A stretch of DNA of 64,000 bases from NCBI GenBank assembly GCA_965216565.1, contig OZ244170.1:4288001-4352000 (forward strand). Reading direction: 5' to 3'. The notes under the pieces are model-generated. The model did not search any database and was not told the origin of the DNA. It saw nothing but the letters and a program-made list of their open reading frames with translations. Shown in pieces: positions 20,700 through 30,726 of this stretch; within the stretch, counting starts at the first letter, position 1; every line of letters begins with the position of its first letter. This stretch comes from Bythopirellula sp. Its GTDB lineage: Bacteria; Planctomycetota; Planctomycetia; Pirellulales; Lacipirellulaceae. The translations under genes were made by a program, and so were the position numbers.

Positions 20700-21109
20700 C
20701 GGCAGGCGGGAGTAAAGGTGATTTGAGGGACTCTGAAGAACGTTTTCGAACGAGTTCGAAATGTATGGATTTTAACGATCCACGTAGGCCAGACCCGCTA
20801 GTCTAAATGTCTGGCATGGACTGTTCAACTCGGCCCCCTGGCGGAAATCCGACTTTTTACCCTAAGTAGCGGCAAAACCCGACTCCCCCCTGCCAATTGG
20901 CAACTAGGAACTTCGACCTAAATTGTTGCAAAGAAACTCACTGGCCCTGATAATAGAGACCGAACACCGCTCCCAAGCAGATAGGCGGCGCTTCTCCTTT
21001 GACTATCGGAACAGAACCTCCCACGAGTAAGGCCTGCTAGCGAACGATATTTTCACGTCGTCAATATTCCGTTAGTTGCTTGTCTGGGATTGCGAATTTG
21101 GAACCGTCC

Positions 21110-22897
21110 ATGTGTAGATCCCTCCCTCGTGCTCTCGAACTAGGAAATCTCGCTCGCGCAGTGCTGGCGATGATCATTCTTAGTGGTCCAGTTCAGGCCA
21201 ACTGGCTTGATGACGTTGGGTGGAACGATCTTTCCGATTTACTCGGCAGTGATATGCCTACCGGCAATGGCGTGTTTATTTCGCAGGTCGAGGCCGGCCA
21301 GGGAGGAAATCAAAATCAATACTTCCCTGAAACTGACCCCAACAATACCGTTCACATAGACGCCGCGCTCGACCCTCTTGGCGAACTGCCTACTTTTGTG
21401 AACGGTAGTTCTGGCATGCACCCAAACCCTGCGGTTTCGTCGCATGCCACGAACGTCGTCGCAAATGTTTTCTACGGTGATAGAAACGGGCAGTCGCGCG
21501 GAGCCAATACAATCGTCGTCTATCAGGCGGATGACTATCTCAGGAATTTCTTGAATTGCGGTAATGGTACCGCCTGTAATGCAACAGCACCTGGCGACCC
21601 GGAATTTGTAGATCCAGCGGACAGCCAAACCAAGCAGTATGTGGTGCAGAACCATAGTTGGGCTGGAAGTTTGGGTGACGGTTTCGATATCCGCGCCCTT
21701 CGCAAGGTGGACTATCTGGCAGATGAGTTTGAGATCACCATGGTGGTTGGTGTGTCCAACGGCGATGCTGATCCCAATACTGGAACCCCTGCTCACCCGG
21801 CATTAGAGAACCTGCTGGCTCATGGCTACAATTCACTAGCCGTTGGAGTCTCGGCAGGCGACCATTCCATCGGACCCACGACTCTAAGCGGATATGGCAC
21901 CGGACGCCAGAAACCTTCGCTCGTATCACCCTTGAACTCGGCCAGTTCAGCGACTGGGACCGTGTCTGGTGCAGCAACGATCTTACACGACGCTGTAGGC
22001 GGAGCGTTTGCTAAACGAAGTGAGACTATGCGAGCCATCATTATGGCTGGGGCAACGAAAACAGAGTTTCTGAATTTCGTTGACCCTGAGACTTCCGCAG
22101 TCGACCCGTGGAGCCGTTCCTCCAGCCAACCTCTAGATGATATTTTGGGCGCGGGGGAGCTAAACGTCTTGGAAAGCTACCTGATCACGGAGGGTGGGCG
22201 AGCCGTGGGTGCGAAAACACCGTTTAATCCTGCTGACAGCGGATCCTACGGTTGGGATTACAACAACGTAACTTCCACAGACGTGAGGCACTACGAATTC
22301 GAGATTCCAGCAGGCAGTATCGCCCTCGATTTTTCGATCATGTTAACTTGGAACGTGGACATAAATCCAAGTTTCCTATCTCAAACGCTTGCCGACTTGA
22401 GCTTGACTTTGAAGGATGAAACCGACTCGGTCATCGAGTTTAGCAACAGTGCAGACGACAATGTCGAACACATTTACATCGGTGAGGGCCAGGCTCTCGA
22501 ATTTCTTGGTCCGGGCACATACACCCTAGAAGTCGCTGGCGATATCTCGCGCGACTATGGATTGGCTTGGAGAACTAGCACAGCCTTTGGCACCGATCCA
22601 AACAATTTAGTCGTGTCCGCAGACTTTGATCAAAACGGGATTGTCGATGGATTCGACTTTTTTGTCTGGCAGCAAAACGAAGGCATTCTGGTAGATGCAC
22701 TCCATGTTCAAGGCGATGCCGATGGCGATGGCGACGTGGACGGAGCGGACTTATCGATTTATGAAATGCAGTATGGCTCCTCGCCCACGCTGCCCTCAAT
22801 TGTCGGGATCCCAGAGCCTAACACATTCGTCCTGACTCTCTTAGTCGCCTTGGGCGGTGCCCTGCCCGTGCGACGCCGACGTACAGCACTTGCTTAG
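21110..22897 (+). CDS. Subtilase (S8)-like secreted protease with a dockerin-like repeat pair and PEP-CTERM
   Basis: QVEAG, SHATNVA, VGVSN, ASSATGTVSGAA, GAGELN; ADFDQNGIVDGFDF / GDADGDGDVDGADL; IPEP, TM helix, RRRR. Confidence 0.8.
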   Translation: MCRSLPRALELGNLARAVLAMIILSGPVQANWLDDVGWNDLSDLLGSDMPTGNGVFISQVEAGQGGNQNQYFPETDPNNTVHIDAALDPLGELPTFVNGSSGMHPNPAVSSHATNVVANVFYGDRNGQSRGANTIVVYQADDYLRNFLNCGNGTACNATAPGDPEFVDPADSQTKQYVVQNHSWAGSLGDGFDIRALRKVDYLADEFEITMVVGVSNGDADPNTGTPAHPALENLLAHGYNSLAVGVSAGDHSIGPTTLSGYGTGRQKPSLVSPLNSASSATGTVSGAATILHDAVGGAFAKRSETMRAIIMAGATKTEFLNFVDPETSAVDPWSRSSSQPLDDILGAGELNVLESYLITEGGRAVGAKTPFNPADSGSYGWDYNNVTSTDVRHYEFEIPAGSIALDFSIMLTWNVDINPSFLSQTLADLSLTLKDETDSVIEFSNSADDNVEHIYIGEGQALEFLGPGTYTLEVAGDISRDYGLAWRTSTAFGTDPNNLVVSADFDQNGIVDGFDFFVWQQNEGILVDALHVQGDADGDGDVDGADLSIYEMQYGSSPTLPSIVGIPEPNTFVLTLLVALGGALPVRRRRTALA

Positions 22898-23402: not shown

Positions 23403-24500
23403 TCAATCCTGCACGAGATTGACTGATTCCGAACCTTTTACGTCAATCAAATAGGCCATAGCAAAGGGGTCGATATCATTCGGTAGAAACTCTACGTGGC
23501 CATCGAGATAGGTGGAATTGACTCCACCGGGGTGCAAGCTGCGGGGGGCAGCTGAAGTATAACCACCGAATAGCCCAAACTTTCGATTCCACTTGTCACA
23601 AGGCATGCGTTCCAGTTCCGACTTAGCCAGGCTTGCGACCGAGCAACGTAGCAGCATATCGGAATTGGGTCCTAAGAAATTGGGCAATTGTACTTGTTCG
23701 ACGATGTATTGCGCGTTGAGGGGGATGTACGGACCAAAATTGCCTCCGTAACTCTTGTCGTGGTGCATATCGAAAGCCAGCAGTGAAGCCCCATTCCAAG
23801 GCAGTGCCCAGGCACCTCGTTCGTCCGTGTCGATCTCGATGGTTCGAACTTCGCTAAGCAGAATTGTGGAGCTAGTTCCGTCTTCGATATTTTTCAACTC
23901 TTGTCCTGAGGCGATGAGGGCTCCTGGATAGAGCATTTGCAGATTCGTGTGGTATGGGCTCGTGTACGCCGCATAGTTGCCTTTGGCGAATACTTTGCCA
24001 TTGGTGTTGGCTTCATCGAAATAGAATCTGCCGCGAGCGGCGTCGCTGGGACACAGCATCGATTCGATTGCATTCTGTTGAGGATTATTGTCTTGATCGA
24101 AGATGCTCTTCTTCAGGTCGAATTGATCGAAGAGGGCGCTCTGCTCCGCATAAGGAAGGAGCATGACCGCCCAACCAATCATCGGGCCACTCATTTGATC
24201 GAAAACTGGATACCTGCGGCGGCCAAATTTCATGGTCTTTTCTTCGACCAATCCGCTGGGCGGTAATTTGCCCTCAGCAGCTTCGTAACTTTGCACTGCC
24301 AACGAGAGTTGTTTGAGATTATTGGTGCACTGAATCCGGCGTGCTGATTCGCGTGCTGACTGTACGGCCGGCAACAGCAGTGAGATAAGAACGCCAATAA
24401 TGGCGATCACCACTAAGAGCTCCACCAAGGTGAATCCCGTCACCCAAGAGCGGCGCAGGGACACATCGCCAGAGTTTGAATTGCTTGTGTCCTGCGTCAT
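23403..24500 (-). CDS. DUF1559 prepilin-type cleavage/methylation protein (H-X9-DG)
   Basis: GFTLVELLVVIAIIGVLISLLLPAVQSARESARRIQCTNNLKQ; SLHPGGVNSTYLDGHV. Confidence 0.95.
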   Translation of the reverse strand: MTQDTSNSNSGDVSLRRSWVTGFTLVELLVVIAIIGVLISLLLPAVQSARESARRIQCTNNLKQLSLAVQSYEAAEGKLPPSGLVEEKTMKFGRRRYPVFDQMSGPMIGWAVMLLPYAEQSALFDQFDLKKSIFDQDNNPQQNAIESMLCPSDAARGRFYFDEANTNGKVFAKGNYAAYTSPYHTNLQMLYPGALIASGQELKNIEDGTSSTILLSEVRTIEIDTDERGAWALPWNGASLLAFDMHHDKSYGGNFGPYIPLNAQYIVEQVQLPNFLGPNSDMLLRCSVASLAKSELERMPCDKWNRKFGLFGGYTSAAPRSLHPGGVNSTYLDGHVEFLPNDIDPFAMAYLIDVKGSESVNLVQD

Positions 24501-24924
24501 GGAATGTTCCTGCAAGATTGCATCCTACTGGCCGATTGGCGAAAAGTGCCAGCGTGGAACTTGCCGACGTGGCTTATTTCATCCACGACCTGGCTGTGCG
24601 CCAAGCATCGGTCCGCACCGGCAGGTAGAAAGCTGCCCCCGAATCTGCTTCGCTACTCTTACCACTTGATTATAGGACAATACTACGAGAAAACCAATTG
24701 TTCGCCGAAGGTGATCTGCCGTACAAATCGTTCCCGGCGCCCCATTCAGCCAAAATCGTAGCCCAAAGCGATAGCAACTCTGTAGGACTAGTTCGCTGGT
24801 TCGAGACTTCTAGTGGCGGTCAAAATCGGTATACTCGGCGGTTTGTTTATCCAATTTAGGTGGAGCGCATATAGCAACACCGAATACTTAGTGAGTTGGA
24901 AAGTCAGAGAAGGAGCGAAACGCT

Positions 24925-25614
24925 ATGAAAACAACTATTCTAATCGGCGGTGCCATGTTAGTCGTCGGCCTTGGAAGCTGGGTGATTGCCCAGGAAAACA
25001 TGCCAGCCAAACCTCAGCAAGGTGAGCCCGTGAGCGAACAAAAAGTGACCAGTCAATATAGTTATGCCATTGGGTTGAATATTGGGCGCAACTTCAAATC
25101 GGAGGGTACGGCACTCGATCTCGAGACCCTATTAGCCGGAGTTCGGGACGGGCTTTCTGGTGAGAAACCAAAGTACGACGATGCGACTTGCGCACAAGCT
25201 TTGCAGCAGCTACAACAACGTCAAGCCAATGCCCATGTAAATAAGAATAAGGAATTCTTAGCACAGAATCGCCAGGCTGAAGGGGTCAAGGTTTTACCGA
25301 GCGGATTGCAATATAAGGTTCTAAAGCAAGGCGATGGCCCTACTCCTAGTTTGAACGATACTGTGCGAGCGCACTATACGGGTCGCTTTATCGATGGTTC
25401 AGTCTTCGATAGCTCGGTGGAAAGCGGCAAGCCATTCGTTACTCCCGTCACACGTGTAATCAAAGGTTGGACGGAAGCGCTAACCAACATGCAGGTTGGA
25501 TCGAAATGGTTGATCGTTGTGCCTAGCGAATTGGCATACGGCGAAACGGGTATGGGGCCAATTCCCCCCGATTCGACGCTCGTTTTCGAAATGGAATTAC
25601 TCGGCATCGAATAG
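24925..25614 (+). CDS. FKBP-type peptidyl-prolyl cis-trans isomerase (FkpA/Mip-like)
   Basis: SYAIG, LPSGLQY, HYTGRFIDGSVFDSS, VIKGWTEAL, LAYG, IPPDSTLVFEMELL. Confidence 0.95.
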   Translation: MKTTILIGGAMLVVGLGSWVIAQENMPAKPQQGEPVSEQKVTSQYSYAIGLNIGRNFKSEGTALDLETLLAGVRDGLSGEKPKYDDATCAQALQQLQQRQANAHVNKNKEFLAQNRQAEGVKVLPSGLQYKVLKQGDGPTPSLNDTVRAHYTGRFIDGSVFDSSVESGKPFVTPVTRVIKGWTEALTNMQVGSKWLIVVPSELAYGETGMGPIPPDSTLVFEMELLGIE

Positions 25615-25901
25615 TTAGAAAGCGGCAAACTAGAGGGCCAGCTATCTGGTGCAGGGGAGTCCCGGAGGGCAGGTCCCTAGGGGCGTTTCCTTAAGTGCTA
25701 CCCGTAAACTGGCGTTTCCTACAGCCCATTCCTTGCGGCCACCTCGACGATTGCCGCCAAAGTGCGCAATTTTCTTTGCACCGGCCCCCATGTGGGCTAC
25801 CTTTCAGGAAGCAGTGGGGGGTTGGCAAAGATATACGGTCTGCGTGCCAGGGTCCCTCAAGATGGTGGTAACTTCAAACTGGGAGAGAGTTTCGGCGATT
25901 C

Positions 25902-26038
25902 GAGAATTGTCGTGAGTGTTCTGAATCAGAACAAAAGTAAGACAATTCTCCTGCAATAGTGGGTCGAAATACGCGATTTGAGGTTTCCCACAGTTTTTGT
26001 TAGTACTTGGTTGCATGGCAGGAAACTCTAGCTAAAAT
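25902..26038 (+). promoter_or_regulatory. Nested palindrome (candidate operator) and putative promoter of the YTV gene
   Basis: GAGAATTGTC...GACAATTCTC (25902-25950) encloses TGTTCTGA-A-TCAGAACA; TTGCAT(26011)-16 nt-TAAAAT(26033). Confidence 0.45.
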
Positions 26039-26168
26039 CGCTGGAATACGCATTCGGCTTAGCTTTCGGAGCTTAGCCGTTTTACAGGACAGCGTTCGCG
26101 CAAGAGATACACAGCGCCAATTGTACTAATTCTTACATAGTTTTCGTTCGACAATGGAGGGCATCTAG

Positions 26169-27650
26169 ATGTCACGTAGTTTGTTTTCGCTGCTAACAGC
26201 AACAGCTTTGTTGGTTGCAGCACTTCCAGGTCAAGCCTGGGCTGGTTCTTGTGGAAGTTGTGGCTGCGGTTGTGCAGCGGCTTCCGATTGTGGCTGTGGA
26301 GATGCCTGCGGTAGCTCGTCTGCTTGCGGCGGTTCGGCTGCTGGTTGCGGCTGTGCACCACAGATGACAACTAGGACGGTCATGGTTCCGACTTACGTAG
26401 AAGAAATGCGTACGGTTACCACGACTCAATACAATCGCGAAGAGCGTACACGGACTTACACCGTGAACAAGCGTGTTCCTCGCACCGAAGAGCGAACCTC
26501 CAATTACACCGTGATGGTTCCAGAACAACGTAGCCGCACCGTAAACTACACAGTTTGCAAGCCGGTTACAGAGACCAAGACTCAAGAGTACACCGTTCAG
26601 GTTCCTTACACTGAGGAACAAGAGCAGAGCTACACCGTGATGGTTCCTTCTTACGAGGACAAGACCGTCACCTACACCGTTCAGGTTCCTTACACCGAGG
26701 AAAAAGAACAAAGCTACACCGTGATGGTTCCTTCGTATGAAGACAAGACCGTCAGCTACAGTGTGCAGGTTCCTTACACTGAGCAAAAAGAAGTTAGCTA
26801 CACAGTTTCGGTTCCTTACACCGAAGAGCGTCAAGGCAGCCGAACCGTGTCGAAGCGTGTTCCTGTGACTACGATGAAGACCGTAACGGTTAACTCCGGA
26901 CACTGGGAAACCCAGACCATGGAAGTTGGCTGCGGTGCTGGAAACGGCGGCGGCGGAGCTTGTGGTAGCGACTGTGGCTGCAATTCCTGCGGTGGTTGCG
27001 GATGCAATTCCTGTGGTTGTGCACCTCAGACTCGCACCGTATGTAAGCGAGTGTGGGTTCCTTCCTGCGAAACGAAGGAAGTACCTTGCACCACTTATCA
27101 ATGCACCACTGAAGAGGTTCCTTACACCTACACAGTGTGCCTGAGCCGTCAAGAAGAGCGAACTCGCACCGTCACTGTTAATAAGTGCCGCACTGAGTCT
27201 CGCGAAAAGACTGTTAAGGTTTGCAAGATGGTTCCAGAAGAACGAACTCGCACCGTCACTGTTCACAAGTGCCGCACCGAGGATCGTGAGCGAACTGTTA
27301 AGGTTTGCAAAATGGTACCAGAAGAACGAACTCGCACCATTACGCTTCACAAGTGTCGCCCCGAAACTCGCACCCGCGAGTATCAGGTCACACGTTACGA
27401 GCGTGAGCAGAAGTCTCGCGAAGTGTCCTACACTGTCTGCGTACCGCAACAGCGTACTCGCACTTACAACGTGACTGTTTACGACTGCGTGCCTGAAGAA
27501 AAGACCCAGACTTACACCGTATGCGTGCCAGTCCAGGTCGAGAAGCAGGTTCCCGTACGAGTGTGCAAGATGGTTGAGAAGACCATTGAAGTACCTTGCG
27601 GTGGCGGCGGATGCGGTTCGAGCTGCGGTGGCTGCGGCTGCTGCAACTAG
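26169..27650 (+). CDS. Secreted cysteine-rich YTV-repeat protein (planctomycete envelope/fibre type)
   Basis: Signal peptide ending AWA; YTVxVP repeats at 14-aa period; three Cys/Gly clusters; RBS GGAGG; strongly biased codons. Confidence 0.88.
   Translation: MSRSLFSLLTATALLVAALPGQAWAGSCGSCGCGCAAASDCGCGDACGSSSACGGSAAGCGCAPQMTTRTVMVPTYVEEMRTVTTTQYNREERTRTYTVNKRVPRTEERTSNYTVMVPEQRSRTVNYTVCKPVTETKTQEYTVQVPYTEEQEQSYTVMVPSYEDKTVTYTVQVPYTEEKEQSYTVMVPSYEDKTVSYSVQVPYTEQKEVSYTVSVPYTEERQGSRTVSKRVPVTTMKTVTVNSGHWETQTMEVGCGAGNGGGGACGSDCGCNSCGGCGCNSCGCAPQTRTVCKRVWVPSCETKEVPCTTYQCTTEEVPYTYTVCLSRQEERTRTVTVNKCRTESREKTVKVCKMVPEERTRTVTVHKCRTEDRERTVKVCKMVPEERTRTITLHKCRPETRTREYQVTRYEREQKSREVSYTVCVPQQRTRTYNVTVYDCVPEEKTQTYTVCVPVQVEKQVPVRVCKMVEKTIEVPCGGGGCGSSCGGCGCCN
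26589..26790 (+). repeat. Intragenic 84-bp tandem repeat (N-arm of the YTV protein)
   Basis: Units at 26589 and 26673 encode YTVQVPYTEExEQSYTVMVPSYEDKTVx; partial third unit from 26757. Confidence 0.85.
27153..27360 (+). repeat. Intragenic 84-bp tandem repeat (C-arm of the YTV protein)
   Basis: Units at 27153, 27237 and 27321 (partial) encode EERTRTVTVxKCRTExRExTVKVCKMVP. Confidence 0.85.
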
Positions 27651-27697
27651 TCACTGACTAGCGTTCATACGCTAGATTGAGTGATCAGTTAGCTATC

Positions 27698-27738
27698 AAA
27701 AGGGGCCAAGTCTCTTCGGGGACTTGGCCCTTTTTTTA
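27698..27738 (+). terminator. Rho-independent terminator, possibly bidirectional
   Basis: AAAAGGGGCCAAGTCTC-TTCG-GGGACTTGGCCC followed by TTTTTTT. Confidence 0.9.
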
Positions 27739-27937
27739 TGCCGACAGTCTCTCGGGAACGGAATTCTTAGAAAGTCGCTTTACAGGCAGGCCTATCCACC
27801 TTGCCGTATTCCTGCCGTGTTTGGTATATCCTGCATCCGATAGACACGATGTGCTAGCAATCGGCCCCCTGGCTATCGAGTAGGGCTGATTTCACGAGAG
27901 GGTGGAGAGCGCCTCCTGGGAGGTGTTATGCAAAGGA

Positions 27938-28873
27938 ATGCTACCGAAATCTATACGTATATTTGTCTCCGGCTGTCTATGCATTCTGAATGCGATGGTC
28001 GCCCAGGGTGCTGACGAAGCCCGCGTGCTGCCGCCCCCTGGAAGCGGCGTCTCTGCACCTGCTGAAGAAAACTTGCTTCTCGCTCCACCCGAGGAGTTGC
28101 TGACCGACCCCAAGCAAACCGAGGGGCTCCTTGAGGAGTCGATCACCGAAGCGATGGAGTCGGTCCCAGAGTTGCCTCTTGAGCCGGCACATTGGTACCA
28201 ACCGTCGTATTGGTTTGGACCAGCACCTTGGGATGTTGGATTTGAACTGGGCCTCAACGGTAGCGAGGGCGTGAACGAAGCACTAAGCCTTCGTTCGGGC
28301 GGCCACATCCGTCGCAAAACGAAGAATTGGAAAGTCGATAGTAGCCTCGTCTACAATAAAAACAGCGCCAACAACGTAGAGACACAGAACAACGCGCTCC
28401 TCGACTTGCGGCTGGATCGGTTCTTGAAAGATTCGCCCTGGTCGCTGTTCTTTCTCCACCAGACTCTCTACGACGAATTCCAGGCGTATGATCTACGCGT
28501 ATCAGCCAATGCCGGTTTGGGTTATGAATGCAGCTGCTACGAAGCCATCGAAACCATTCTCCGCTTCGGTGCTGGTACGTCTCGTGAATTTGGCGGTCCC
28601 GATAACGATTGGGCGCCTGAAGCCCTGATGGGTTTGGAGTACACGCATCAACTGACAAAAATGCAGCGTCTTGCTGCCAAGCTGGATTATTATCCTCAAT
28701 GGGATGATTTCACTCAGTATCGAGCCGTAGCCGATGTGGGTTGGGAGATTGATCTGGATCGCCCCAAGAATCTCAGCTTGAAGTTCTCGATTGTGGACCG
28801 CTACGACAGTACGCCCAACGGAGTCCAGCCGAACGAGTTGAACTACTCCGCTTTACTGATTTGGGGCCTCTAA
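27938..28873 (+). CDS. DUF481-family outer-membrane beta-barrel protein
   Basis: Signal peptide, Pro/Glu linker, ELGLNGSEG, YDEFQAYDLR, amphipathic strands with a terminal aromatic. Confidence 0.8.
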   Translation: MLPKSIRIFVSGCLCILNAMVAQGADEARVLPPPGSGVSAPAEENLLLAPPEELLTDPKQTEGLLEESITEAMESVPELPLEPAHWYQPSYWFGPAPWDVGFELGLNGSEGVNEALSLRSGGHIRRKTKNWKVDSSLVYNKNSANNVETQNNALLDLRLDRFLKDSPWSLFFLHQTLYDEFQAYDLRVSANAGLGYECSCYEAIETILRFGAGTSREFGGPDNDWAPEALMGLEYTHQLTKMQRLAAKLDYYPQWDDFTQYRAVADVGWEIDLDRPKNLSLKFSIVDRYDSTPNGVQPNELNYSALLIWGL

Positions 28874-29064
28874 ACAAGCTCTGAGGAGCATTCGATTGGG
28901 ATTTCGCACCCGCTGGTCGGAACCGCAGAGCTAGGCTATCATAAGCGGTTTCCGTCCAGACTGCTCCTCCCTCGTGGTAATTCAGCGTGGCAAATTCAAA
29001 AGCCCTTCCGCCCGATAGCCACGCCAGAAAGCCTCTCCACTCGATGCCGTTGCGAGCCTAAGTT

Positions 29065-29520
29065 ATGGACGAAGATCTGCTGCAGAACTTAGAGCAAACC
29101 CTGGCTCGCGAATTGCCGCTCTCTCGAGCGATGGAAATCGAAGTGGTCTGCTGGGATCGGGAGACCCTGGCAATGAAGATGCCTCTGGAACCCAACAAAA
29201 ACCACCAATACTCGGCATTTGCCGGCAGTCTGAATGCGCTATGCACCGTGGTCGGTTGGGGGACCATTTTTCTCTTACTGGCTCGTGAGGGGCTTTCCGG
29301 CAACGTCGTTATAAGACGGGGAAAGATTCGGTATCACCGTCCGGTCATAAGCTCAGAAATCACTGCTCGCGGCCTGCCTGTCGATGCAGAGCAACTCGAC
29401 TACTTTTTCGAGCTGATGCGAGACAAGGGAAAGTCGAAGCTCGATCTCGCAACTCAAATTGTAGATGACGAGGGAATCTTGGTTTCTTTTCAAGGCTCGT
29501 ACGTGGTTCTAGACGCTTAG
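29065..29520 (+). CDS. YiiD C-terminal-type hotdog thioesterase
   Basis: LPLSRAM, PLEPNKNHQYSAFAGSL, IRYHRPV, FQGSYVV. Confidence 0.85.
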   Translation: MDEDLLQNLEQTLARELPLSRAMEIEVVCWDRETLAMKMPLEPNKNHQYSAFAGSLNALCTVVGWGTIFLLLAREGLSGNVVIRRGKIRYHRPVISSEITARGLPVDAEQLDYFFELMRDKGKSKLDLATQIVDDEGILVSFQGSYVVLDA

Positions 29521-29551
29521 ATTTCACCAGCAAAACCTGGCCTCCTTTGCA

Positions 29552-29711
29552 TGCCAAAATGGCACTGCTTGCCAAGTCGCCGGCCTTCACTTGCCACTCT
29601 GACACCTGCCATAATGACAAAGTCGTCTGGAGCGAGTATTTGTAAGTTGTTTGCAGATAGTTATTTACGGGAATTGTTGGAAGTTGTGATTTGATTGGCA
29701 CGCGGAGTGCA
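29552..29711 (+). promoter_or_regulatory. Sigma54 promoter of hsp20 with three upstream palindromic activator sites
   Basis: TTGGCACGCGGAGTGCA at 29695-29711 (GG-N10-GC); TGCCA-N3-TG(G/A)CA at 29552, 29592 and 29607. Confidence 0.7.
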
Positions 29712-29803
29712 TTTTCTCGCTTCGAACAATTGTCAGCCTGCCTAACCGATTTAGTGAGGTGGGTTGTGAGAGAAGAGTTTCCAGGTTTTAGGAGGAACAA
29801 GTT

Positions 29804-30235
29804 ATGACTAATTGCAACTCGAAGAACCGTTTGCAGAACTACTTTCCATCCCAACTTAGTGACGTAGACGCGTTGGTCAGCCAATTTTTTGGTCCCGGAC
29901 TTAAGAGTATTCAACGGGCCTATTTTGCACCGGCTAGCGTGTGGGAAGAGGACGAAGCTTACCACGTGCAGCTCGACGTTCCCGGCGTATCGAAGGAAGA
30001 TGTCGAGATAACATTCGACAAAGGCAAGCTGAGTATTTCCGTAGAACGCGCAACTCCTGAGGAGCGACCAAATCGCCATCATGAGGAGCGAACATACGGC
30101 AAAGCTGTACGAGAAATTGCCCTGTCTTCACAGGTCGATCCGGAGAGCATTTCTGCGGAGCTAACCAACGGCGTTCTGCACGTCACCGTGACGAAAACGC
30201 CTGAGGCTCAGCCAAGACGGATTGAGGTTAATTAG
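29804..30235 (+). CDS. Hsp20/alpha-crystallin small heat-shock protein
   Basis: LDVPGVSKEDVEI, ERTYG, ISAELTNGVLHVTV; C-terminal IEV; RBS AGGAGG. Confidence 0.93.
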   Translation: MTNCNSKNRLQNYFPSQLSDVDALVSQFFGPGLKSIQRAYFAPASVWEEDEAYHVQLDVPGVSKEDVEITFDKGKLSISVERATPEERPNRHHEERTYGKAVREIALSSQVDPESISAELTNGVLHVTVTKTPEAQPRRIEVN

Positions 30236-30287
30236 TGACAAGGCACTGTGGGCCGATTAGTAATGCCCGAATGTGCCAATTCCCCTG

Positions 30288-30320
30288 AGGGTCGTACCAT
30301 TTGGTGCGGCCCTTTTTTTT
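30288..30320 (+). terminator. Rho-independent terminator after hsp20
   Basis: AGGGTCGTACCA-TT-TGGTGCGGCCC followed by TTTTTTTT. Confidence 0.85.
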
Positions 30321-30339
30321 GTAGACTAAGTTCTCTGCC

Positions 30340-30726
30340 CTACCCTACCAGCCAGCGGCCCAACAGCAAACCGGCGAAAACGGCGGCCAGTCCCAGCACA
30401 AGATTGGCCCCAACATTCAAAGCCGCGACGTTATGCTGCGTCTTCTCAATAAATCGGGCTGTCTCAAAGCCGAACGTTGAAAATGTGGTGAGCGCTCCCA
30501 AGAATCCAATCGTCGCCGCGGAATGGGTGATTGCGTTCCATCTCGGAATATCGGCTGACTCGAAGGGAACGAAGAGTCCCAACAGGAAACAGCCAGCCAC
30601 GTTTACCACCAGCGTGCCGAATGCGAAGTGGTCTCCCAGCCAACGTGCGCAAGCCAGATTCACGCCATAACGACTCACTGCCCCGAGGGCACCACCTACG
30701 GCAATTGCAAGAATATGAGAATTCAT
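30340..30726 (-). CDS. crcB: Fluoride channel Fluc/CrcB
   Basis: GGALGAVSRY, GTLVVNVAGCF, GFLGALTTFSTF. Confidence 0.95.
   Translation of the reverse strand: MNSHILAIAVGGALGAVSRYGVNLACARWLGDHFAFGTLVVNVAGCFLLGLFVPFESADIPRWNAITHSAATIGFLGALTTFSTFGFETARFIEKTQHNVAALNVGANLVLGLAAVFAGLLLGRWLVG

Follow-up and report, generated by a model that had tools for sequence, protein, structure and literature searches.

Mirror-paired arms in a planctomycete YTV protein point to a long two-stranded beta-ribbon

The gene at 26169-27650 (+) of the window, by which we mean the whole 64,000-nucleotide stretch of Bythopirellula sp. DNA that was analysed, encodes a 493-residue protein of the planctomycete YTV family whose two long repeat arms, arm N and arm C, very probably pair antiparallel in one register. 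An earlier note on this DNA, made by a model from the sequence alone, had proposed that the chain folds back into one long antiparallel hairpin, and the two-stranded pairing of arm N with arm C is strongly supported by arm lengths across homologues, by covariation and by structure prediction. The gene is an ordinary member of its family, from which nothing separates it, and the single mirror-paired ribbon is a strongly supported property of the whole YTV family; the insight concerns that family, not this particular gene. The full explanation, which we consider probable, is that the protein is a type-A YTV envelope protein, zipped upon itself into a ribbon, with Cys residues that would be free for disulfides between ribbons.

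Available excerpts of five papers (PMC8567305, PMC10632474, PMC12673574, PMC5287468, PMC3343278) describe YTV proteins as wall components found only in Planctomycetia. Similar excerpts report that YTV proteins rank among the main components of walls boiled in SDS (PMC5287468), that homologous YTV proteins occur in the SDS-resistant wall fraction (PMC5287468, PMC8567305), that the planctomycete envelope is Pro/Cys-rich and disulfide-stabilised (PMC3035269, the latter also in PMC2754498), and that a YTV gene, Plim_0937 of Planctopirus limnophila, is essential (PMC10632474).

Sequence layout and family membership

The features of the gene and its surroundings are collected in Table 1. The earlier note had divided the protein into six segments by manual count, and both its lengths (25/39/189/33/190/17 residues) and its Cys counts (0/10/1/9/14/6) proved exact. 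The protein has the Cys- and Pro-rich composition expected of the YTV family, its 493 residues including 40 Cys and 25 Pro, and 25 of the Cys lie in the cap, loop and tail, where CGC and CxxC runs are present. As the note had it, the arms are almost without Gly, Ala and Leu (2 Gly, 0 Ala and 0 Leu in arm N; 0 Gly, 0 Ala and 2 Leu in arm C) and have a 14-residue period, with autocorrelation peaks at 14/28/42 of z 12.7/15.5/11.5 in arm N and 10.2/15.2/7.7 in arm C (versus 500 shuffles). It was also right that the arm-C Cys are mostly 12-16 residues apart (9 of 13 gaps), and that the duplicated zone is acidic in arm N (12 D/E and 4 K/R) and K/R-rich in arm C (20 K/R and 12 D/E). The prolines of both arms, 11 of 11 in each, fall at even positions.

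Table 1. Features in and around the YTV gene, in positions of the window
Feature	Position	Strand	Remarks
605-aa ORF	21080-22897	+	secreted-type, subtilase-like, with dockerin-like repeat and PEP-CTERM-like end by eye
FKBP-type peptidyl-prolyl isomerase	24925-25614	+	signal-like start; directly upstream of the YTV gene
Shine-Dalgarno-like GGAGGG	26156..26161	+	7 nt 5' of ATG; read from sequence
Probable Sec signal peptide, residues 1-25	26169..26243	+	basic-hydrophobic-AWA pattern, AWA end; judged by eye
N-terminal Cys/Gly/Ala/Ser cap, residues 26-64	26244..26360	+	10 Cys; pLDDT <50, without confident fold
Arm N, residues 65-253, ribbon strand 1	26361..26927	+	14-aa period; 1 Cys (C130)
Arm-N 84-bp tandem array, acidic	26589..26817	+	2.7 copies, 86% matches (Tandem Repeats Finder)
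W246 of GHW	26904..26906	+	faces W296, sets register i+j=542; covariation
Central Cys/Gly loop, residues 254-286	26928..27026	+	9 Cys; pLDDT mostly <50
Arm C, residues 287-476, ribbon strand 2	27027..27596	+	14 Cys, 13 at even positions
W296 of WVP	27054..27056	+	
Arm-C 84-bp tandem array, basic	27152..27364	+	mirrors arm-N array; 2.5 copies, 85% matches (Tandem Repeats Finder)
C-terminal Cys/Gly tail, residues 477-493, plus stop codon	27597..27650	+	6 Cys; pLDDT mostly <50
Terminator-like 10-bp hairpin	27703..27737	+	T7 run on +, A-run on other side; scan lists - strand
DUF481 protein	27902-28873	+	downstream of the YTV gene

Three further claims held in part. The mirrored 84-bp duplications are both present, over a wider extent (~38-113 residues from the loop in arm N and ~42-113 in arm C) than the 55-112 given. 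The arms, described as differing in sequence, match in length and are not unrelated: arm N and arm C are forward homologues of one repeat, with 34-44% identity in their two best blastp alignments. The mirror symmetry about the loop was found as well, with its axis at i+j=542 where the loop edges would place it at 540. The copy numbers of the arrays could be compared with run X5, whose sample and study differ from those of X3/X4, the possible source of the window; one X5 contig covers 25600-28300 without a gap and differs in 14 letters. The assembly of the window is therefore sound here, and assembly error does not account for the copy numbers. Run X6 covers the region in part only.

Membership in the family is clear from Pfam, where YTV (PF07639) matches in 10 stretches at 106 bits (cut-off 21, E 8.4e-31), and from the nearest Atlas clusters, with YTV in 29 of 30 matches; no NCBIfam family was found for this protein. 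In a survey of 201 genomes of the phylum, 16 matched YTV, including all 14 listed genomes of the class (the window's among them), and the 187 genomes outside the class gave 2 with single weak matches, both to other proteins. Control genomes had YTV in 0 of 14, and the titles of 79 of 80 records name planctomycetes. One homologue, P0070, is labelled Calditrichaeota and lies on a 1.6-kb contig. The two Pfam matches from outside the class, L056 (G065) and L057 (G099), were rejected as YTV proteins. Both begin like pilins and contain an insert, rich in T/V/K/E/Y, that surrounds a Gly-rich loop with Trp/Pro motifs on either side; this insert looks like an independent long mirror hairpin.

The genome has two other YTV genes, one of type C (C1:5141290-5142882, +) and one type B-like (C1:3625473-3626933, -). 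The type-C paralogue has Cys in both arms, which measure 198/186 between anchors, with none facing at the register. Most genomes examined have all three types together, which hints at a wall built of three components.

Arm lengths across homologues

Arm lengths were measured between four profile anchors placed independently in each protein, namely the start Pro, the Trp of GHW, the Trp of WVP and the end Cys; these replaced regex anchors, which had placed 72 of 121 proteins, 57 with a difference of 2. The first set held 160 proteins (121 homologues including the query, and 39 ORFs), and 115 passed all four anchors, the 45 unanchored ones being mostly other paralogue types, two non-members, fragments and divergent proteins. 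In 111 of the 115, arm N as anchored exceeded arm C by exactly 2 residues, while 5000 permutations of the partners had on average 19.8 and at most 35 proteins with this difference. The result was repeated in a held-out set of 111 new proteins (70 anchored; difference 2 in 69 and 1 in the other), in 30 loci of close relatives (24 of the 25 anchored, the window's own included; arms 102-228) and in 80 loci of a genome collection (75 of 76 anchored), the four sets overlapping in part and the relatives not being independent. Thus the lengths are correlated, and the uncorrelated lengths that the note had named as evidence against a hairpin were not seen.

The match is kept as the length changes. The arms of homologues span 102-270 residues, mostly in steps of 14, and arms off this lattice, of 156, 210, 226 and 234 residues, are also matched. 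Over the same homologues the loop varies from 11 to 153 residues between the two Trp, uncorrelated with arm length in the first set. Paralogue type C has a constant arm offset at four arm lengths, and type B was represented by one length. In orthologues L064, L065 and L070 a 16-residue deletion lies 135-136 residues from W246 in one arm and 132-139 from W296 in the other, which is the mirror site, not the parallel one; ten orthologues were compared for deletions, six of them with repeat-zone gaps that had no unique placement. These matched insertions and deletions strongly support the earlier proposal that the length is tuned by matched duplications in both arms.

The exceptions were few. Of the four misses in the first set, one, L038 (270/324), is a genuine mismatch; P0099 is fragmentary, the end of P0098 is divergent, and manual anchoring of L028 restores the fit (270/268). 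In L038 (G035) a 168-bp unit of 96% identity is present in 3.9 copies in arm C versus 2.8 in arm N. Another mismatch is L069 (G217), with arms of 200/170, and the miss in the genome collection has the same lengths, so that one case may have been counted twice. L038 and L069 are the only clear mismatches, and in each the excess consists of complete 28-residue units from an array of recent, nearly identical copies. They could be artefacts of assembly, or else evolutionary intermediates in which the extra part loops out as a bulge.

Some homologues differ in their remaining parts. P0168 (831 aa), P0222 (850 aa) and P0212 (701 aa) have very long loops or extra low-complexity ends, and the best-placed arms, under the anchor threshold, are still matched in P0168 (242/240) and P0222 (270/269). 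A group of Cys-poor homologues lacks the Cys/Gly caps (P0005, P0006, P0009, P0010, P0014, P0015, P0031 and P0035), and several of these stand in large clusters of up to 182 members. Their arms are 171-172/170 where they could be placed, again under the anchor threshold. Since these Cys-poor relatives keep matched arms, Cys cross-links are not required for the ribbon.

Covariation and residue chemistry at the register

Covariation was computed as corrected mutual information over 112 type-A proteins with an arm difference of 2. Antiparallel stripes appeared at i+j = 542, 540 and 544 in the numbering of this protein. The outer blocks reached Z 13.9 and the inner ones 12.5, versus 3.7 and 5.6 for the best parallel stripes; between other block pairs Z was at most 2.9. 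Full-length classes gave Z at the register of 16.9 (63 proteins), 13.4 (47) and 8.7-9.2 (24), and 40 held-out proteins gave 14.2. Among the top covarying pairs, 30 of 51 lie on the register versus 1.7 expected. No stripe within an arm exceeded Z 4.8 in any length class, versus 8.7-16.9 for the register, and no second stripe that would mark a ribbon-ribbon contact stood out in the length classes examined. The anti-diagonal stripe that the note had suggested looking for is thus present, and the signal of a local hairpin or solenoid is not.

The chemistry of the facing residues follows the same register. The position of W246 and W296 (sum 542) is W:W in 94 of the 112 proteins, and Pro makes up 12% of the Trp parity in both arms and was not seen on the other parity. 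The ratio of opposite to like charges is 4.9 at the register and 8.6 at +2, whereas the remaining offsets between -8 and +8 give 0.4-2.5. By the usual rules of beta-sheets, the parity that holds Pro and the Trp-Trp pair here would be the non-hydrogen-bonded one, with its backbone pointing outward.

Cys residues avoid each other across the ribbon. One facing Cys-Cys pair was observed in the 112 proteins versus about 36 expected, a figure that assumes independent columns where the related sequences are not independent; the residues that face arm-C Cys are Pro, Trp, Tyr or Thr. Of the arm-C Cys, 862 of 1323 fall at two phases of 14, and in this protein 0 of 15 arm Cys face another Cys. Because the arm Cys avoid facing each other, they would be free for neighbours, and the unpaired state that the note had given to those of arm C was borne out as regards pairing across the ribbon. 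The Pro and charge rules of type A also hold in types B and C, with 0 facing Cys-Cys pairs in 9 type-B and 11 type-C proteins; in type C there are 21 Cys-Cys pairs at offset +2 and 21 at -2. Hairpins stapled by Cys-Cys pairs facing across the strands are thus not supported by the counts in the type A, B and C proteins tested. Cys counts outside the arms vary widely among the 112 proteins (cap 0-10, loop 3-16, tail 2-10).

Structure prediction and fold searches

AlphaFold2 modelling, a check that the note had proposed, gave two long strands. For homologue P0008 (30 sequences) the strands are unbroken over 130 residues each (50-179 and 222-351), with pLDDT 78-89, a low pTM of 0.26 and five models within 1.2, and 3 of 6 fold-match ranges sum to 401, the sum of W183 and W218. 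For this protein itself (108 sequences) the long strands recur in the model, with a likewise low pTM of 0.28 and fold-match ranges that sum to 486-493 versus 492 expected; pLDDT is <50 over part of the duplicated zone, so that the rod is not modelled end to end. A homodimer prediction of the mature protein scored 0.00 twice, which is no answer either way. The "Cys knots" that the note had placed at the ends stay conjectural, with pLDDT <50 in these parts, a loop span that varies as given above and no conserved spacing seen.

A search of solved structures with the family alignment returned three chance-level matches (E 0.75-0.92), and fold searches of the PDB found no real match beyond generic hairpins. 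The weak look-alikes had Z 2.1-3.3 and rmsd 4-14 A, aligned over 46-134 residues, with Foldseek TM-scores of at most 0.14. The top match in a viral library, a phage PA14-domain protein (E 6e-16), was set aside as a generic long-strand likeness (TM-score 0.13, rmsd 86 A). These searches do not establish the fold as new.

Genomic neighbourhood

The YTV gene is solitary: an FKBP gene ends 554 bp upstream of it, and next downstream is a gene for a DUF481 protein, which is presumably an outer-membrane barrel. The FKBP protein matches NCBIfam BamJ at 112 bits (cut-off 100). FKBP adjoins the YTV gene in 14 of 29 loci of relatives and 11 of 80 wider loci, and DUF481 in 12 of 29 and 13 of 80; with only 11 of the 80 wider loci, FKBP was rejected as a dedicated folding partner, and its position probably reflects local synteny. 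The 605-aa ORF further upstream has no Pfam or NCBIfam family over threshold. The hairpin after the gene is probably two-way and suggests, from its sequence, a transcript end right after the YTV gene, though 3 terminator-like sites versus 2.3 expected is not significant as a count alone. No sigma-70-like promoter was found for the YTV gene and no Rfam match at 24400-30400, and its codon-usage rank of 1835 of 3047, scored against only 3 reference genes, is uninformative on expression.

Proposed assembly and alternatives

We propose that the protein would be exported by Sec with removal of residues 1-25, after which arm N and arm C would zip antiparallel in the single register i+j=542, from the W246:W296 neck to the chain ends. 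The 14-residue unit would pair with its own reversed copy, and opposite charges would select arm N with arm C. About 186 residue pairs, at 3.0-3.4 A per residue, would make a rod of ~56-63 nm, an arithmetic that agrees with the ~60 nm of the earlier note.

The same register could be formed between chains, as an arm-swapped antiparallel dimer or an open-ended polymer with the loop as a hinge. Covariation and length matching are blind to which chain supplies the partner arm, and the loop is flexible and, at 11-153 residues from W to W, long enough. However, AlphaFold2 closes the hairpin in one chain, a tethered partner would be at far higher local concentration, and three paralogues with differing arm lengths in one envelope would need strict self-recognition. 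We regard pairing between chains as unlikely, and pairing within one chain as very probable.

In the self-zipped ribbon, Pro and most Cys would lie at non-hydrogen-bonded positions by the usual beta-sheet rules, and a Pro every ~14 residues would block the free edges, such that the ribbon stays two-stranded and does not grow into a sheet. The arm Cys and the 25 Cys of cap, loop and tail would then be free to link adjacent ribbons through disulfides, ribbons of the two paralogues among them. From reports on whole envelopes of other species, we lean towards such inter-ribbon disulfides. The Cys might otherwise mainly bind metals, as in metallothionein, or form intra-chain disulfides at the ends, with ribbons packed non-covalently as spacers or stalk fibres. 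The CGC and CxxC runs of cap, loop and tail would suit this, as would the name "ferredoxin" that one source gives to homologue P0049 and the ribbon retained by Cys-poor relatives. It is nevertheless quite unlikely for a secreted-type protein in an envelope that excerpts of PMC3035269 and PMC2754498 report as disulfide-stabilised, and the once-per-period Cys of arm C would suit links to neighbours better than a metal cluster.

Hairpins could also be joined edge to edge, like those of the phi29 collar tube or pore-toxin stems, in a flat sheet or a long beta-barrel tube, and the only structural look-alikes, all weak, are the long hairpins of such barrels. This is very improbable: one-parity Pro every ~14 residues should break the outward edge hydrogen bonds, no second covariation stripe was found, and charges on both faces leave no membrane-facing strip. 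That each 14-residue repeat folds locally, as short hairpins or a beta-solenoid, with the mirror layout a by-product of repeat evolution, is barely credible, for although the 14/28 period and forward arm homology are typical of solenoid repeats, there is no within-arm stripe above Z 4.8, the arms are almost without Gly or Asn-Gly turns, and the one-residue length matching and mirror deletions would be left unexplained.

For the disulfide-linked ribbon, the outcome would be an SDS-resistant, Pro/Cys-rich, disulfide-stabilised protein sacculus of the kind reported for planctomycetes, in which strut length would shift via matched insertions and deletions in both arms; a cross-linked mesh is our hypothesis for its architecture, and the keratin-like fibre that the earlier note had put forward is conjecture. 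A more tentative extension, which we hold possible at best, is that Planctomycetia have a covalent protein sacculus of disulfide-linked, free-standing beta-ribbon struts of ~35-95 nm that would bear the load in place of peptidoglycan. If so, the three paralogue types would be struts differing in length and Cys density, paired indels would tune strut length so that it sets the spacing of the envelope or the size of the mesh, like a ruler, and the ribbons would exceed any hairpin matched in the solved structures searched. If one 14-residue period made one full twist, the arm Cys would align along one side of the rod.

Descriptions of the SDS-resistant planctomycete envelope go back a long way, and its main proteins are known; excerpts of the literature found do not give its structure. 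The ribbon would be a testable building block for this protein wall. With a register at residue level, rod length becomes predictable from sequence, which opens the wall to direct experiment. An evolutionary puzzle also follows, in that two distant indels must match; the few genes with unmatched arms may represent intermediates. In protein materials, a beta-ribbon of 60 nm that zips itself up would be useful.

Comparison with known systems

Cys-rich secreted proteins are known to stiffen an envelope in the same superphylum, where chlamydial OmcB and OmcA do so through inter-chain disulfides. To our knowledge these do not form a two-stranded ribbon; they belong to a different repeat family, and this protein has no Pfam or NCBIfam match to them. 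Extended antiparallel two-stranded segments are likewise found in the phi29 collar tube (6qz9), the stems of pore-forming proteins and the F-ENA-2 fibre (9i65), but these hairpins are far shorter and are held by barrel or sheet neighbours, and the likeness is only generic.

The epiplastins (articulins and alveolins), as described in excerpts of PMC6212826, likewise have a medial low-complexity domain that is rich in Val and charged residues and poor in Ala and Gly, with VPV-like motifs, long predicted beta-strands and Cys in head and tail, and they form an insoluble meshwork. They differ in building eukaryotic (protist) membrane skeletons on the cytoplasmic side, and a mirror-paired hairpin is not described in those excerpts. 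The epiplastin family was absent from our Pfam scan (E up to 1) and from the Atlas matches, and we treat the likeness as a working analogy.

The closest relatives are the YTV cell-wall proteins of Rhodopirellula baltica, Gemmata obscuriglobus and Tuwongella immobilis, with which this protein shares the repeats, a probable signal peptide, the Cys/Pro-rich composition, the range limited to Planctomycetia and the occurrence of several paralogues per genome (three here). No YTV fold or ribbon was found in the literature searched, though older family papers and supplements may already describe the layout. Where the available excerpts of published descriptions treat YTV as a repeated motif without a fold, the present analysis sees in the repeats the two strands of a mirror-paired ribbon.
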